Origin: Escherichia phage VEc20
Sequence record: MN022785.1
Reading direction: 5' to 3' (one strand)
Length of the DNA: 64,000 nt
The position numbers were made by a program, and so were the translations under genes. Shown in pieces: positions 11,518 through 54,719 of this stretch. The notes beneath the pieces were generated by a model. The model saw only the letters and a list, made by a program, of their open reading frames with translations. It searched no databases and was not told the DNA's origin. How positions within the stretch are numbered: position 1 is the first letter of the stretch; the number at the start of each line of letters is the position of its first letter.

Positions 11518-12120
11518 TTATAGATTAAATCCTTCAAAATCAAGAGTATAGATAGTATATGTTGAATACTTTTTGTACTCATATCTATCTGCAATTCTAA
11601 ATACACTTCCAGCTGGTATCATTACTTCTTGTTCATCTGAAACTAATTCCATATTACGATAACGATGACTATCCGGAAACTTAAAGTTTGGATTGTATTC
11701 TTTACAGCGTAGAGCTTTTATAGCATACTCCTGGAAATTGAATACCATAGGAGCTTTGAATTCAAAAATAACTTGTGTGTTATACTCTAAACCGGAAGCA
11801 AAATGTAGAGCTATATTTTTATCATATGAAGCTGATACTACTTTATCAAATATAATAGTATCAATTCCTTGATTTAACACCTGCTTAGTCTCAGCTGGAA
11901 CACCTCTCCAAAGAGGTTTATCGTTTGGAACCAAACGAGATTTGATTATTTCATTTAACCAAGAATGATCGTCTGGTTTATTAGTAATACAATGAATTAA
12001 AAGTTCAATTTCAGATAAATTAAACCCTTCAGAAAGTAATTCTTCACGAATAGAAGCACGCACCGATGCATCCATTGATTTTATTTTAAAATCTTTTAGT
12101 TGCATTACTGAGTATTTCAT
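11518..12120 (-). CDS. modA: ADP-ribosyltransferase ModA
   Basis: 200-aa ORF, size and position match; tandem with 207-aa ORF. Confidence 0.7.
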   Translation of the reverse strand: MKYSVMQLKDFKIKSMDASVRASIREELLSEGFNLSEIELLIHCITNKPDDHSWLNEIIKSRLVPNDKPLWRGVPAETKQVLNQGIDTIIFDKVVSASYDKNIALHFASGLEYNTQVIFEFKAPMVFNFQEYAIKALRCKEYNPNFKFPDSHRYRNMELVSDEQEVMIPAGSVFRIADRYEYKKYSTYTIYTLDFEGFNL

Positions 12121-12740
12121 TCAACTACCTCAATATCATAAACTTTAAATGTTCCAAATGAATCGTGTAATTTTTCTTTTGAAATAGAAGTTATTCTATA
12201 CTTTCCAATTGGAATCATCCATTCTTGTTCACGCACAATCATCATTAAGTTATCAGTACGCTCTGAATCTAGCCCATCAGTATCTTCATACGTGTACTTA
12301 AACTCAGTATTAGGAGAAGAAAGTATAATATCGCTGATATGGTCAGAATAATTAAAAGCTTTATCAGTTTTTAAGCGAAATATTATTTCAGTGAAATATT
12401 CAGCATAAGAAAAAGAACACGCTGTATGCAAACTAGTAGTAAATGAATCTACTCTGTTCGTTGAAAACACTTCTCCAACTTGTAAATCTTTAATGAGTTC
12501 TTTTGTCGATTTTGATATACCACGATATAGCTGATAAGGCGATTTAGTTAAATGCTTTTTAACGATTTTATTCAACTGCTGATGAAGAGCTTCATTCTTT
12601 TTGGCTTCCATACATTGCCAAAGAACTGACTGCTCAAAGTCAGTAAATTTTTCACAGACTTTTTTATACATATCATATTGAAAATCGACACTTTCAGCTT
12701 TTATAGATAACTGTTCAACATCTGCGAGATTAATAATCAT
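12117..12740 (-). CDS. modB: ADP-ribosyltransferase ModB
   Basis: 207-aa ORF, size and position match T4 modB. Confidence 0.7.
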   Translation of the reverse strand: MIINLADVEQLSIKAESVDFQYDMYKKVCEKFTDFEQSVLWQCMEAKKNEALHQQLNKIVKKHLTKSPYQLYRGISKSTKELIKDLQVGEVFSTNRVDSFTTSLHTACSFSYAEYFTEIIFRLKTDKAFNYSDHISDIILSSPNTEFKYTYEDTDGLDSERTDNLMMIVREQEWMIPIGKYRITSISKEKLHDSFGTFKVYDIEVVE

Positions 12741-50133: not shown

Positions 50134-50448
50134 CTAAAAGAAACTTCTTTCACAATTTTTTCCACTAAACCATGCGCTAACCGCTTTCTTAGTCTCAGGA
50201 GCAGTGTTATCCATAAACCATTCAAAGGCAGCCTTTTTATGATTCTGGAGGGCTTCTCGGGCTTTAATCTGCTCACGGTCTATTAACACTAACATATGAG
50301 CCTTTCTTGTCACCAGGGGCTTCTTATGATTTTTTGAATACTCCCAATCATTTGTCCATCGCATCGTTGTTGCGAATTGAAGTACAGCTTCTTTAATCTT
50401 AGTTTCGTAAATTTCACGAGCCTTTGAGTATAACATCATTACCTCCAT
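50134..50448 (-). CDS. hypothetical protein
   Basis: 104-aa ORF. Confidence 0.5.
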   Translation of the reverse strand: MEVMMLYSKAREIYETKIKEAVLQFATTMRWTNDWEYSKNHKKPLVTRKAHMLVLIDREQIKAREALQNHKKAAFEWFMDNTAPETKKAVSAWFSGKNCERSFF

Positions 50449-50538
50449 TTACCAGTTTAATTCTAGTCATCTTTTTAATGGCAGTCCATATAATCTATTT
50501 CTGAACTGCCTTTTTGTCTTAGAAGTCCTCTTATGAAT

Positions 50539-51519
50539 TTATTTCAGAAGAGTAACCTCAGCGATTTCTTCCCAACCGTTTTTGTCGGTCATAATAAAGT
50601 CAGCAAGATAAAGAGCAGTACGCAGTGAAACATTACGTAAACGGTTAACATTGACTTTCATCCATGATAATGCTTTATAAGTTTCTTCATCAGAAAGACC
50701 GCGCTTTTGCATCATGTCGGTTGAAAGAATAACATCTTCAACCCTGACCATAATTTCTTCATTAGTGTGAACACCCAAATCTAAATAAACTGAGCGGGAC
50801 ACTAATGCTTGTAAATGTGGAGCAAGTTTAGTACCACGGTCTAATTCGCGGTCAATGTCAACGTTTGTGATAAAAACAATCGTTCCTTTAAATTCAAACT
50901 CACGCTCAATGCCTTTTTCTTCTAAGTAAGAAGATGCGGTGCTCCAGCAGACTTTGCGGGTCTCTCCGGTGTCCAGAGCAGCTTTCAGAAGATTAAGAAT
51001 GTCCATATCAGAGAAAACATCCACATCATCAATCAAAAGGACAGAATTCTCTTCACGATTATTCCAAAGCTGTTCATAAAGACCGATACCGGAGATTTTA
51101 CCGTTAATGCTTTTATATTCAATGTATCCATTATCATTTGCTTTATTCAAAGCTTTATCTAAAGAATACGTTTTACCAATACCCGCCGCACCAGAGATAA
51201 TTAATGAACGAATGTTTCCGTTAATAATACCATTCGTCATCATTCCCATAACATTAAATCTTTTATTAATGCGGGTTTTCATATCTTCATATGATTCTTT
51301 AACTTCTTCAACTTTTACACCATCATATGAAATGTCTGATTTGTAAACCCAAACACCGCGACGCTTACCGTCAATTTCAACAAAAACTTTACCATCTCCT
51401 TGTGCATCCACCGGAGCATTATCTGGGAACCATTCACCTAAGAGCTCAAAAGTTCCAGAGATTTCTTTACCAAAGTAGATACCCTTATTGATAGTTACAG
51501 TTTTCATTTTATTCTCCAA
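50539..51519 (-). CDS. P-loop AAA-type ATPase of unknown function
   Basis: 326-aa ORF; Walker A GAAGIGKT, Walker B VLLIDDVD. Confidence 0.65.
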   Translation of the reverse strand: MENKMKTVTINKGIYFGKEISGTFELLGEWFPDNAPVDAQGDGKVFVEIDGKRRGVWVYKSDISYDGVKVEEVKESYEDMKTRINKRFNVMGMMTNGIINGNIRSLIISGAAGIGKTYSLDKALNKANDNGYIEYKSINGKISGIGLYEQLWNNREENSVLLIDDVDVFSDMDILNLLKAALDTGETRKVCWSTASSYLEEKGIEREFEFKGTIVFITNVDIDRELDRGTKLAPHLQALVSRSVYLDLGVHTNEEIMVRVEDVILSTDMMQKRGLSDEETYKALSWMKVNVNRLRNVSLRTALYLADFIMTDKNGWEEIAEVTLLK

Positions 51520-51542
51520 TTTTACATTTGTTTTGATAGGGT

Positions 51543-51573
51543 AATAGTATCACACTACTACCCTGCTGTAAAC
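51543..51573 (-). promoter_or_regulatory. T4 early-type promoter upstream of AAA ATPase
   Basis: GTTTAC, 18 nt, TGATACTAT. Confidence 0.45.
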
Positions 51574-51576
51574 AAT

Positions 51577-51840
51577 TTATTTTAATGTTTGCCAAATTTT
51601 TACTGCTTCGCGACGAGATACTTCTACAGCTCCAAGTTCTACAGCTTTTTGGCGTCGCCGAGCGTGTAAGTCATAATGTTTAATGCGTTTATCTTGAAAC
51701 CAAGAACGTTTCATTCCTATTGCTTCTGCCATTTCGTGAAGCTCTTCAATATCTCCATCAGTGAACATATGACAATTTTTAGTTGGATGACCGCGAAGTT
51801 TCCATCCATGATTCATTAAAACATCTACGTAAACTGTCAT
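51577..51840 (-). CDS. hypothetical protein
   Basis: 87-aa ORF. Confidence 0.5.
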   Translation of the reverse strand: MTVYVDVLMNHGWKLRGHPTKNCHMFTDGDIEELHEMAEAIGMKRSWFQDKRIKHYDLHARRRQKAVELGAVEVSRREAVKIWQTLK

Positions 51841-51986
51841 TGATTCTTCTCCAAATAAGTTTCGATAATTTTCTGGGCGAGATAAACCGCGTTATCTTCA
51901 GTTGCGTCTTCTAAGAAACTTTCAAAACACTCTGAAATTTCTTCTGTATCAATCAACTTTTTTACTTCAATTGGTGTAATTTTCAT
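51837..51986 (-). CDS. hypothetical small acidic protein (49 aa)
   Basis: hand-translated MKITPIEVKKLIDTEEISECF...; ATGA overlap with next gene. Confidence 0.35.
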   Translation of the reverse strand: MKITPIEVKKLIDTEEISECFESFLEDATEDNAVYLAQKIIETYLEKNQ

Positions 51987-52020
51987 TTTGTTTTCCGTTT
52001 AAGTGTTTGTTTTGATAGTT

Positions 52021-52052
52021 GTATAGTACCATAAAGCTTTATGCTTGTAAAC
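52021..52052 (-). promoter_or_regulatory. T4 early-type promoter (GTTTAC, 18 nt, TGGTACTAT)
   Basis: promoter half of a promoter + stem-loop module. Confidence 0.5.
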
Positions 52053-52054
52053 AA

Positions 52055-52085
52055 CTTTGTGAAAAATTTTTGAAATAAAAAAGGG
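52055..52085. repeat. 31-bp exact direct repeat copy 1 (ctttgtgaaaaatttttgaaataaaaaaggg); copy 2 at 52675..52705
   Basis: identical 31-mers 620 bp apart, flanking ORF 52111..52611. Confidence 0.8.
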
Positions 52086-52106
52086 GACCTCTAGGGCCCC
52101 TTTTAT
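52085..52106 (-). terminator. stem-loop (aaaagggg ... ccccttttt)
   Basis: 8-bp stem with 10-nt loop, U-tract on both sides. Confidence 0.4.
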
Positions 52107-52110
52107 GCTT

Positions 52111-52611
52111 TTATTCCATTTCTATTATATGCATGCTCTTTTTGCTATCAAAATATATGTTTTTAACTGTTAACTCCGAATTAATTGGCAATAAAAACTC
52201 TCTTTCATAATCCACCATAGAAAGATTATCATAAAGCTTATTAAGCTTATCATCATCAATCTGGCCAGATTCTTCAATTGCGATTAAATTTTCTAAAATT
52301 TCAATCATAGCAGTTGAATAGTCAAAAACGTTTGCATTTTTTAACACTATTAAAACATTAGTCATATAGCGTTCTGCCGCAAATGTTTCAGCTATATGAG
52401 ATTCACTACTAAAGGAAGTTATTCTTTTAAATTTGATTCTCCTATTAACTTCAAACTTATAAGATAGTACTTCCTCTATTGTAAGTCCTCTAAAAAGCAC
52501 GTCTTTAATCTCAAGTTTGTCTTTAATGTAATCATTAACACGCTTATGATTAAAATCATTAATTTTGTTGCCAAGGCATTTCATTAAAATATGCATTGTG
52601 TTTCTCTTCAA
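52111..52611 (-). CDS. hypothetical protein in promoter/stem-loop cassette
   Basis: 166-aa ORF with own early promoter, flanked by hairpins and 31-bp direct repeats. Confidence 0.55.
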   Translation of the reverse strand: MKRNTMHILMKCLGNKINDFNHKRVNDYIKDKLEIKDVLFRGLTIEEVLSYKFEVNRRIKFKRITSFSSESHIAETFAAERYMTNVLIVLKNANVFDYSTAMIEILENLIAIEESGQIDDDKLNKLYDNLSMVDYEREFLLPINSELTVKNIYFDSKKSMHIIEME

Positions 52612-52643
52612 TTTTTAAAGAACAATTAATTAACTACAAATAT

Positions 52644-52673
52644 ATTATAATATGCTTTATGATAGAAGTAAAC
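52644..52673 (-). promoter_or_regulatory. T4 early-type promoter (GTTTAC, 17 nt, TTATAAT)
   Basis: upstream of ORF 52111..52611. Confidence 0.5.
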
Positions 52674-52674
52674 C

Positions 52675-52705
52675 ACTTTGTGAAAAATTTTTGAAATAAA
52701 AAAGG
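52675..52705. repeat. 31-bp exact direct repeat copy 2
   Basis: identical to 52055..52085. Confidence 0.8.
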
Positions 52706-52721
52706 GAGCCCGAAGGCTCCC
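52704..52721 (-). terminator. GC stem-loop (gggagcc-cgaa-ggctccc)
   Basis: perfect 7-bp stem, UUCG-type loop, after nucleotidyltransferase gene. Confidence 0.45.
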
Positions 52722-52723
52722 TA

Positions 52724-53737
52724 TCATTTATAATAACTTCGGTGGTTTTCAAGATAGACCTTCTCAAGGAAGTCATCCCAGAAACCCATGTCCACTTTTT
52801 GCTGCATACCGTTCTTAGAAGCTTCAGTAGATGCTGCTTCTACTTGATCGACCACATCTTCCAAAAACTCTTGAACGGTTTTAAATGGATGTTTACCCAA
52901 CTTCACGTCGAGAATAAATGGAGCGTCTTGAAGTGGATAAATCAAGTCGCCAGTTTTGTAAATTTCCAATAGTTGGAGTCCACCACGGCAAGCATGACTC
53001 AAAGCTTTCCAGTTAATACCTTCATTGGCTTCGGCCTTACGAGCACGTTCACCATATTCAGCATCTAATTTGTTCAGTGACTGCTTAAGCTCAATAAGAG
53101 AAAGAGTTGTCTGATATTTACGACCCAACACAGTGTAGAACGTTTGTGGACCTGTTTTCTCATGATTATGGAACACCCATTCACAGAATTCATTTTCTGG
53201 AAGACGATGCTTAATATCTTCAACTTTAGTGCGGCGCTGCTTAATAGAACCATCTTCTTGGTAATCAACCCATTGCTCGGGGATTTGATTAACTACTTTC
53301 AATACATCACGTAATGCAGCCAAACGAGAACCCTTAACGCCGTATTTAGAAGCTTGCTTACGGACATATCCTAAATATGATTTCATGTTAGTCGTATAAA
53401 AACGAGAACGATTGTCTTGAATAAACTTCCATACATCAGGCAAATCTGATTTAACCACTAGCTCAGGTGGAGTGTGAAGCATATCCAACGCTACAGTTTC
53501 ACCATCTGCTGCTAATTTAAAGAAATATTTAAGACTGTATAGTTCATGGTCAATATCATCTTTAGTGTTTTTAGATGATGTGTTGTTAGTGTTTTTACTC
53601 ATATGCTCTTTGACATTTCCGATAAGAATATCGCGAGCAGGAGGAACAAAGATTTCTTTAAAATCGACATCAGATTCTGGTGTAGAAGTTCCATAAAGAT
53701 GACTACCAAAATAACTTTTCATTACTGTTTTCATCAT
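52724..53737 (-). CDS. Pol-beta-superfamily nucleotidyltransferase of unknown function
   Basis: 337-aa ORF; N-terminal GSHLYGTSTPESDVDF fits GS-x(9-13)-DxD motif. Confidence 0.55.
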   Translation of the reverse strand: MMKTVMKSYFGSHLYGTSTPESDVDFKEIFVPPARDILIGNVKEHMSKNTNNTSSKNTKDDIDHELYSLKYFFKLAADGETVALDMLHTPPELVVKSDLPDVWKFIQDNRSRFYTTNMKSYLGYVRKQASKYGVKGSRLAALRDVLKVVNQIPEQWVDYQEDGSIKQRRTKVEDIKHRLPENEFCEWVFHNHEKTGPQTFYTVLGRKYQTTLSLIELKQSLNKLDAEYGERARKAEANEGINWKALSHACRGGLQLLEIYKTGDLIYPLQDAPFILDVKLGKHPFKTVQEFLEDVVDQVEAASTEASKNGMQQKVDMGFWDDFLEKVYLENHRSYYK

Positions 53738-54195
53738 TCAGCCTTATATTCAATAACAGGACACACTTTAGCTTTACGAGCTTTTAAAAATTCAACGATA
53801 ATCGATTTCTTGGGTTGAATAGGAGGTAAACCTTTATTTTTCCTATCAATGTTTTCTACGTGTAAAGCATAATCCTTTTTCCATTTATAATCTTTATATT
53901 TTTCACGCAAATGTACAGGAATAACAAATGAACCAATAATAAGTAAAACAAGCAAAATGGCAAGTATAAATGCTGATGGAAGCAAAGTCCATAAACTACC
54001 GAAAATAAGCCATCGTTGTAAGCTTTCTGCACAAATAATTGTTAGCCCTACGAGTATAGCACACCCAAAAATAGAAACGAAAAATGTAGGGATAACAATA
54101 GACCAAAAATATGCGCATAGTGTCTTAGGTCGTTGCCATTCATCGTTAAACAATTTGAATAATTTATAGTGCCAAGAGTTTTCATTAATAATCAT
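53734..54195 (-). CDS. integral membrane protein
   Basis: 153-aa ORF with about 3 transmembrane segments; ATGA overlap with nucleotidyltransferase. Confidence 0.55.
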   Translation of the reverse strand: MIINENSWHYKLFKLFNDEWQRPKTLCAYFWSIVIPTFFVSIFGCAILVGLTIICAESLQRWLIFGSLWTLLPSAFILAILLVLLIIGSFVIPVHLREKYKDYKWKKDYALHVENIDRKNKGLPPIQPKKSIIVEFLKARKAKVCPVIEYKAE

Positions 54196-54197
54196 AA

Positions 54198-54719
54198 CTA
54201 TCCTTTCATTGAAGGCGTAACAGTTGTTAAATACTTAATCATAGCTTCAGCTTCTGATTTTGATAGTGAAATTTCTCCATTGTTTTGACGAATAGAAATA
54301 AAATCCGGATGACGGTCACCACCAGCTTTTAAAACACACATATAAGTATCAGTTTCATCTTCAATATTTGAAATGATTGAAGCAGTTCCACATGAATGCG
54401 GTTTTTGATAAATCAATACAGCTTTTCTTCCGCCATTTGACTGTTCATAAACTTTTAATACATCAAACAAATCACTTCTTTTATCAATAGCTAAAATGTT
54501 ATTTTCATCTTCAATGTTAAATCCTTCGGATACTTCATAAAGTGTCACCCATAAATCGCCAATATCAATAACAGCGTTCACTTTTCCATGACTTTCAAGA
54601 GCATGACAAATTTTCTTGATTTCGTCATAACTCATTTTAATAATATCATCTCCTTGAATAAGAAAGATGTCATTTTTAAATTCAACACGAATTAAACCAC
54701 TTCCACTTGAAATAAACAT
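54198..54719 (-). CDS. hypothetical protein, tandem paralog A
   Basis: 173 aa; C-terminus SKSEAEAMIKYLTTVTPSM resembles next ORF. Confidence 0.5.
   Translation of the reverse strand: MFISSGSGLIRVEFKNDIFLIQGDDIIKMSYDEIKKICHALESHGKVNAVIDIGDLWVTLYEVSEGFNIEDENNILAIDKRSDLFDVLKVYEQSNGGRKAVLIYQKPHSCGTASIISNIEDETDTYMCVLKAGGDRHPDFISIRQNNGEISLSKSEAEAMIKYLTTVTPSMKG

Follow-up and report, generated by a model that had tools for sequence, protein, structure and literature searches.

A 621-bp unit consisting of a promoter, a single gene and a terminator was found between two copies of a direct repeat in Escherichia phage VEc20 (record MN022785.1), within the 64-kb stretch of DNA that was analysed as a whole and is called the window below. 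The window is Tequatrovirus (T4-like) genome, and a 2.3-kb query at the locus matched 786 phage records, the best of which (Tequatrovirus G29, G4500, AV121 and ACG-C40) were about 98% identical over the full length. The locus is probably an expression cassette of the promoter-early/stem-loop (PeSL) type, placed in the variable interval between nrdC.11 and nrdC.10 of a T4-like phage and carrying a predicted ADP-ribosyltransferase gene as its cargo.

All genes of the cassette locus were on the minus strand, along which the order was nrdC.11, stem-loop A (SL-A), repeat tract, promoter P-Y, the ADP-ribosyltransferase gene, stem-loop B (SL-B), second repeat tract, promoter P-X, a 49-aa gene, a DUF4031 gene and nrdC.10. 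Upstream, the cassette is bordered by a conserved homologue of nrdC.11 (52724..53737), predicted to encode an RlaP-type nucleotidyltransferase (Pfam RlaP, E = 1.8e-11; PHROG 388, E = 5.5e-136). Downstream, the variable interval is bounded by a conserved homologue of nrdC.10 (50539..51519), predicted to encode an AAA/STAND-like NTPase (PHROG 1250, E = 6e-167). Both aligned to their counterparts in T4 and T2. Between the cassette and nrdC.10 lay the module (51577..51986) formed by the 49-aa gene (51837-51986) and the DUF4031 gene (51577-51840; Pfam DUF4031, E = 1.1e-21), which was missing from T4 and T2. The GC content of the cassette was 27.7%, against 37-38% in the flanking genes.

Repeat tracts, hairpins and promoters

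The 31-mer CTTTGTGAAAAATTTTTGAAATAAAAAAGGG was present in exactly two copies in the window, at 52055-52085 and 52676-52706. A third copy, sought across the window with up to 3 mismatches, was not found, and the 31-mer appeared in 0 of 100 dinucleotide-preserving shuffles. The two exact 31-bp direct repeats of the preliminary description were confirmed in number and corrected in length, since base-by-base comparison extended the exact identity to 32 nt (52054-52085 = 52675-52706). With the adjoining GTAAAC (the -35 hexamer, 52047-52052 and 52668-52673) counted, 38 of 39 positions were identical. The proximal copy (52675..52706, minus strand) reads CCCTTTTTTATTTCAAAAATTTTTCACAAAGT, made up of the T-run of a terminator and an AT-rich, UP-element-like tract before the -35 element, and the distal copy (52054..52085, minus strand) matched it exactly. 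The AT-rich tract TTTTTTATTTCAAAAATTTTTCACAAAG was directly upstream of both -35 elements. Rfam gave sub-threshold matches only over the repeat region, all from the terminator hairpins, and no RNA family accounted for the repeat.

Each repeat copy had also been described as accompanied by a promoter and a stem-loop. Scans identified both of these units, with the same order on the minus strand: GC hairpin, T-run, repeat copy, then the -35/-10 pair. According to the alignment, however, only the tract between hairpin and -35 element was repeated, and the hairpins and promoter bodies differed between the two units.

SL-A (52703..52722, minus strand; AGGGAGCC-UUCG-GGCUCCCU followed by a U-run) was predicted by the terminator scan to be the intrinsic terminator of nrdC.11. 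It has an 8-bp stem closed by a UUCG loop, with an RNA fold of -17.7 kcal/mol (z = -4.45), and was also present in T4, T2 and DalCa. A terminator is annotated at this hairpin in G29 and DalCa. SL-B (52083..52100, minus strand; GGGGCCCUAGAGGUCCCC followed by a U-run) was predicted by the same scan to be the terminator of the cassette; its stem is imperfect, and its RNA fold was -12.9 kcal/mol (z = -1.45). The independent annotation of G29 gives both hairpins as terminators. In the Moonvirus copies of the locus (Moon and KM16) SL-B is the perfect palindrome GGGGACCTCTAGAGGTCCCC, relative to which the Tequatrovirus copies have one substitution and a 1-nt deletion. The Tequatrovirus SL-B may be a slightly decayed version of the terminator.

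The early-type promoter predicted for the cassette, P-Y (52644..52673, minus strand), was found exactly where the preliminary description had put one. It is composed of G-TTTACT (52673..52667), 17 nt and TATAAT (52649..52644), which gave 10 of 12 matches in the promoter scan and fits the PeSL consensus of PST and T4, TTTACW-N17-TAYWAT (PMC4122927). Nearly identical sequences occurred in T2, Moon, KM16 and STML-198, with 2 spacer mismatches in the last three. P-X (52023..52052, minus strand) is composed of G-TTTACA (52052..52046), 17 nt and TG-g-TACTAT (..52023), with the upstream TG motif detected by the promoter scan, and was predicted to be an early-type promoter driving the next module. Its counterpart precedes nrdC.10 in T4 and T2 in the alignment. 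The best match to the sigma-70 consensus in a 5-kb scan was at another site, TTGATA-16-TATAAT (11/12; 52151..52124, minus strand), which lies within the 3' end of the cargo gene and is oriented to its stop codon and SL-B. Chance could account for this site, given the AT-rich DNA, or it could start a very short transcript.

Three more units composed of a hairpin, a T-run and GTTTAC or GTTTGC-N17-18-TAnnAT were observed on the minus strand of the window, at 14936-14872, 40649-40580 and 56293-56231.

The repeat could reflect nothing but regulatory likeness, that of a terminator tail joined to a UP-type promoter, with the insertions and deletions at the locus produced by illegitimate recombination or by co-conversion with a MobD-like homing endonuclease. 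The conservation of AT-rich upstream regions in T4 early promoters (PMC2988021) is in agreement with this. The other terminator-promoter units in the window, however, have quite different and shorter spacers, so function does not demand the tract sequence, and identity at 32 of 32 positions (38 of 39 with the -35 element) points to common descent or exchange.

The cargo gene

The preliminary description gave an open reading frame (ORF) of 166 aa at 52111..52611. Its start was revised, since the TTG at 52611 abuts a Shine-Dalgarno sequence (GAAGAG, 52609..52604) and the annotated relatives begin at ATG. The cargo gene most likely starts at ATG 52596, 8 nt after the Shine-Dalgarno sequence, which is GAGGAG in Moon, and ends at the stop codon 52113..52111, so that it would encode 161 aa (52111..52596, minus strand).

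Two ADP-ribosyltransferases of T4 are related to the product. ModA modifies the alpha subunit of RNA polymerase, and ModB modifies S1 and other proteins. The homology search that the preliminary description had suggested for the product identified it as a member of this Mod family, by a match to PHROG 832 ("RNA polymerase ADP-ribosylase", E = 4.9e-24), a label transferred in the database by homology only. With the phage's own ModB (12117-12740) the identity was 26% (tblastn, E = 4e-11). Residues R36-G37, S61 and E131-R-E133 of the cargo protein aligned with R73-G74, the serine of SFT and EQE of ModB, and with the equivalents in ModA; these R-S-ExE residues were invariant or nearly so across 15 aligned sequences, and the catalytic R, S and E-x-E were retained in homologues of 54-61% identity. 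R36 is the alignment partner of ModB R73, which is catalytic by experiment (PMC10468400).

The family model PF26816 (Mod_ADP_RT) was precomputed on a 96%-identical relative (P0001) and on all profile matches. In the local copy of Pfam, from which this model was missing, the cargo protein was unmatched, and so were ModA and ModB. Searches of NCBIfam and PADLOC with the cargo protein gave no matches, and the sequence search of PDB gave chance-level matches only. AlphaFold2 run on the single sequence reached a pLDDT of 36; the model used here was instead built on the 15-sequence alignment, with a pLDDT of 90.5 and a pTM of 0.84. When this model was compared with PDB by Foldseek, the best 50 of the 77 matches (E <= 0.001) were all R-S-E ADP-ribosyltransferases, and those listed included C3bot, Tre1, ExoS, XopAI, VIP2 and Certhrax (probability 1.00, TM-score 0.41-0.56). 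ModA and ModB have 200 and 207 aa, against 161 aa in the cargo protein, and their N-terminal 37-40 or so residues, a helical extension, are without counterpart in it. Alignment and predicted fold identify the cargo as a short variant within the Mod family, an R-S-ExE ADP-ribosyltransferase similar to ModA and ModB.

The family is small, with 18 clusters at E <= 0.001 in an exhaustive phmmer search over 1.84 billion representatives. The gene was intact in T2, Moon, KM16, STML-198 and UFV-AREG1, and differed from that of UFV-AREG1 by 14 synonymous and 9 non-synonymous codon changes. In Escherichia phage BW-1 the gene was annotated as two ORFs of 198 and 291 bp (2102-2586 of the retrieved stretch), which suggests a frameshift or pseudogene in that lineage.

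These data also bear on another possible origin of the repeat, in which the intergenic region between nrdC.11 and nrdC.10 was locally duplicated in tandem within this lineage and the enclosed ORF is filler without function or a gene in decay. The exact identity of the tracts in this phage would suggest a recent event, and the split gene of BW-1 would fit decay. This origin is contradicted by the data and hardly credible: neither the hairpins nor the promoter bodies of the two units are alike in sequence, the ORF is intact in the five phages named above, its catalytic residues are kept in the 54-61% homologues, and its fold is confidently predicted.

The product is most likely an arginine-specific mono-ADP-ribosyltransferase, which would be made in the first minutes of infection and modify a host protein. 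The ADP-ribosyltransferases of T4 reprogram both transcription and translation in the host, and ModB also links proteins to RNA chains. In database records the cargo gene already has the label of an ADP-ribosylase, and the literature search found neither a described third Mod paralogue nor a paper on an nrdC.10/nrdC.11 cassette. It is possible, but doubtful, that the cargo is a third, truncated Mod-type enzyme with a host target (for example, a defence factor or a factor of translation) other than the targets of the two T4 enzymes, and that its recent spread across Tequatrovirus, Moonvirus and Gelderlandvirus (96-98% identity) on the promoter-gene-terminator cassette records positive selection for host range or counter-defence; if so, the locus would be a traceable case of natural gene flow between genera through PeSL linkers.

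Contents of the interval among relatives and spread across genera

At least five states of the nrdC.11-nrdC.10 interval were present among relatives. It was empty in T4, RB14, RB51 and wV7, and likewise in PST, whereas T2, Manna and UFV-AREG1 had the ADP-ribosyltransferase gene only, and DalCa, F1 and fFiEco06 the module of the 49-aa and DUF4031 genes only. Both were present in this window, G29, G4500, AV121 and ACG-C40. In Kelasse, Ozark and PYps55T a 66-aa gene followed the common SL-A, tract and P-X. Among about 750-790 phage records with the flanking nrdC.10/nrdC.11 genes, the ADP-ribosyltransferase gene occurred in 43, the module in 154, the 66-aa gene in 122, and the ADP-ribosyltransferase gene together with the module in 9. 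The module and the cassette assorted independently of each other. The comparison of related phages proposed in the preliminary description yielded alternative contents in the form of the module, the 66-aa gene and the empty site. The locus was not invariant across T-even phages, invariance being the observation named there as decisive against a shuffled cassette.

On the minus strand, T4 has nrdC.11, SL-A, tract, P-X and nrdC.10, and the same single SL-A/tract/P-X unit precedes nrdC.10 in PST, the phage to which the description of PeSLs in the T4 group goes back. In DalCa the 49-aa and DUF4031 genes follow P-X, so that the order is nrdC.11, SL-A, tract, P-X, 49-aa gene, DUF4031 gene and nrdC.10. 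T2 has nrdC.11, SL-A, tract, P-Y, the ADP-ribosyltransferase gene, SL-B, tract, P-X and nrdC.10, and its two tract copies differ at several positions. By BLAST, DalCa aligned to 50401-52084 and 52654-54300 of the window and was shorter by exactly 621 bp, which is one repeat period. The single tract copy of DalCa-type phages retains 27 of the 31 repeat bases and joins SL-A to P-X.

One tract at the empty sites and two around the insert is the pattern that target-site duplication or integration at att sites would leave, and a dedicated protein recognizing the GGGG...CCCC stem-loop was left open by Arbiol et al. (PMC2839356). The cassette might accordingly be taken as a site-specific or transposon-like insertion, with the repeat as a target-site duplication or as the att sites of a dedicated recombinase. 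This is very improbable. The 621-bp unit has neither recombinase nor transposase, its single gene being that of the 161-aa ADP-ribosyltransferase; the tract copies of T2 differ, and the flanks in Moon and KM16 are different sequences, which is a misfit to a duplication made by insertion. Typical target-site duplications are also much shorter than 32 bp, and the repeat far exceeds them.

The ADP-ribosyltransferase gene was 97.4-98.3% identical at the nucleotide level in the Citrobacter phages Moon and CF1 and the Salmonella phages KM16, STML-198 and Manna. The genus was checked for the retrieved phages: Moon and KM16 belong to Moonvirus and STML-198 to Gelderlandvirus. In these three the coding sequence differed at 8-11 of 486 nt, and a block of 95.6-96.8% identity extended over 52057-52690 of the window in Moon and KM16 and over 52095-52690 in STML-198. 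The flanking genes were far more divergent, with 74-76% identity for nrdC.10 and 67% for nrdC.11. Both ends of the cross-genus block fall inside the repeated tracts, without extended co-conversion of the flanks, and the unit common to the genera runs from the -35 element of P-Y through SL-B and its T-run. Upstream of the block, Moon has a different hairpin, CCTCC-TTCG-GGAGG. The identities indicate that the cassette block has been horizontally transferred across Tequatrovirus, Moonvirus and Gelderlandvirus, and the earlier suggestion of a horizontally exchanged accessory gene is borne out by this near-identity between 67-76% flanks and by the presence of the gene in only 43 of the records.

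In STML-198 (about 2436-2500 of the retrieved stretch) a deletion relative to Moon and T2 takes the 3' half of SL-B, the AT-rich tract and the -35 element of the promoter that follows. A -10 element and leader like those of T2 nrdC.10 are joined directly to the cassette there, before a 59-aa ORF.

The same comparisons make regulatory likeness with illegitimate recombination or endonuclease co-conversion an unlikely account of the locus. In its favour, mobD lies directly upstream of nrdC.11 in T4, and Moon and KM16 have the cassette without identical flanks. The deletion in DalCa, however, spans one repeat period exactly, with a single tract remaining; the cross-genus block ends inside the tracts between flanks just 67-76% identical; and the gene list showed no endonuclease gene in or adjoining the cassette in the window.

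More diverged homologues were also found in comparable units. A 61%-identical homologue (P0002) is located between regA and the DNA polymerase gene 43 on a T4-like metagenomic contig (Logan ERR12726568, 3001-3546 of the retrieved stretch). Its called product has 181 aa, and MHILMACLG... matches the start used elsewhere, so the called start is probably too far upstream. A 54%-identical homologue (P0003), which lies downstream of a gene homologous to nrdC.11, is preceded by a hairpin, an AT-rich tract and a promoter and followed by a terminator. Both have a predicted GTGTAC...TACTAT promoter and GGCC-TTCG-GGCC terminator of their own, the latter being GGGCC-TTCG-GGCCC in P0002. The enzyme lineage thus moves as a unit of promoter, gene and terminator, and it occurs at two or more loci.

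Several observations weigh against the reading as a PeSL-type shuffling cassette. All 43 occurrences of the gene that were inspected or listed with context are in the nrdC.10-nrdC.11 interval, and only the 61%-identical homologue is elsewhere, so the gene behaves as a locus-bound replaceable module and not as an element hopping between PeSLs. The units at about 14.9, 40.6 and 56.3 kb are without the 32-nt tract and have short, unrelated spacers, so homology exchange with those sites is not expected. The cassette flanks in Moon and KM16 are not identical to each other, and an exact flanking repeat is therefore not required for the presence of the cassette. A scan of the IMG/VR viral contigs for the exact 31-mer found none, and the imperfect distal hairpin of this phage (SL-B, z = -1.45) may terminate weakly. 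The PeSL reading given in the preliminary description was nevertheless supported by the anatomy, the one-period deletion allele, the alternative contents and the breakpoints in the tract.

Two further variable features were observed beside the cassette. Similar early-promoter/leader units bracket the module of the 49-aa and DUF4031 genes, at 51501-51552 and 51980-52031, with a spacing of 479 bp. They share 73% identity over 52 nt, and their promoters on the minus strand are 51572..51544 and P-X (52051..52023). The downstream one is without a stem-loop and could be called a "half PeSL". The module also occurs in Karamvirus phages with about 90% identity. Upstream of nrdC.11, the place of the T4 homing endonuclease gene mobD is taken in the window by a 153-aa membrane-like ORF (53734-54195) and a 173-aa ORF (54198-54719), as in G29 and PST, which makes 53734-54719 a further variable spot beside the locus.

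Proposed mechanism and comparison with known systems

A PeSL is defined by a stem-loop terminator, an AT-rich tract, an early promoter, a Shine-Dalgarno sequence and an ATG (Arbiol et al. 2010, PMC2839356). Promoter and terminator activity was shown for the RB49 and phi1 examples, in which inverse PCR detected mini-circles. The AT-rich region was put forward as the site of crossovers, and recombination in T4 is noted to require under 50 bp of homology (PMC2839356). The concept was widened to the T4/PST pair with the consensus to which P-Y conforms (Comeau et al. 2014, PMC4122927). T4 early promoters are composed of UP, -35, TGn and -10 elements (PMC2988021).

In phage VEc20, transcription of nrdC.11 would end at the strong hairpin terminator SL-A, whose T-run merges into the AT-rich tract at the place where T4 early promoters have their UP element. 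P-Y would then give a leader of about 40 nt followed by the ADP-ribosyltransferase gene, and the transcript would end at SL-B, after which the second, exact 32-nt tract copy precedes P-X as the putative driver of the next gene. The tract would be doubly used, on the one hand in regulation, as terminator tail and UP-like element, and on the other as a homology patch for the 621-bp unit. Its 32-39 bp of homology could serve as substrate for the general recombination system of the phage. By this means the 621-bp unit might be deleted, leaving SL-A, one tract and P-X; it might be released as a small circle; or such a unit might be integrated, or exchanged when a related phage infects the same cell. 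A promoter and a terminator of its own would allow the cassette to be gained or lost with its neighbours undisturbed.

The locus confirms a known idea rather than opening one, and as a good worked example it would not surprise a specialist. It is a clean natural example, with a deletion allele of exactly one period, five or more contents at one site, and transfer across genera ending in the linker. The cargo, a sporadic, short third Mod paralogue by its alignment, is of current interest given the roles of the T4 ADP-ribosyltransferases, and the locus would lend itself well to direct measurement of PeSL recombination and to asking what role an extra Mod-type enzyme has for a phage.

Compared with T4 ModA and ModB, the cargo protein shares membership of the Mod family in the R-S-E clade (PF26816), the aligned R-S-ExE residues, predicted early expression and a predicted C3/VIP2-like fold. 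It differs in being about 40 residues shorter at the N-terminus, in its locus 40 kb from modA-modB, and in its sporadic occurrence among T4-like phages, the window carrying modA and modB too. The internal-protein (IP) locus of T-even phages (Repoila et al. 1994, as cited in PMC4122927) is similar in that alternative small genes are swapped between conserved regulatory linkers at one locus in close relatives, and is different in locus and cargo.

The closest likeness is to the PeSLs themselves (Arbiol 2010; Comeau 2014). The order of stem-loop, AT-rich tract, sigma-70-type early promoter, Shine-Dalgarno sequence and start codon is the same, and so are the location in a hyperplastic region, with small early genes that are not essential on either side, the two units around a single ORF, and the difference between close relatives by a precise ORF indel with its junction in the AT-rich tract. 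As far as can be judged at the sequence level, every testable PeSL feature is present: the promoters TTTACT-17-TATAAT (52672..52644) and TTTACA-17-TACTAT (52051..52023); a stem-loop with T-run upstream of each (SL-A and SL-B); an AT-rich tract before each -35 element, with Shine-Dalgarno sequence and start codon at the 3' end; and indels, namely five interval states, the exact 621-bp presence/absence and block ends at 52057 and 52690. The differences are that only the tract from hairpin to -35 element is repeated here, with hairpins and promoter bodies differing; that mini-circles, shown for the RB49/phi1 ORFs, are proposed for this cassette; and that the nrdC.11-nrdC.10 instance, with Mod-family cargo in three genera, was not found in the literature searched. 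PeSL-mediated modular shuffling in T4-type phages is a published mechanism, and this locus is a further instance of it.

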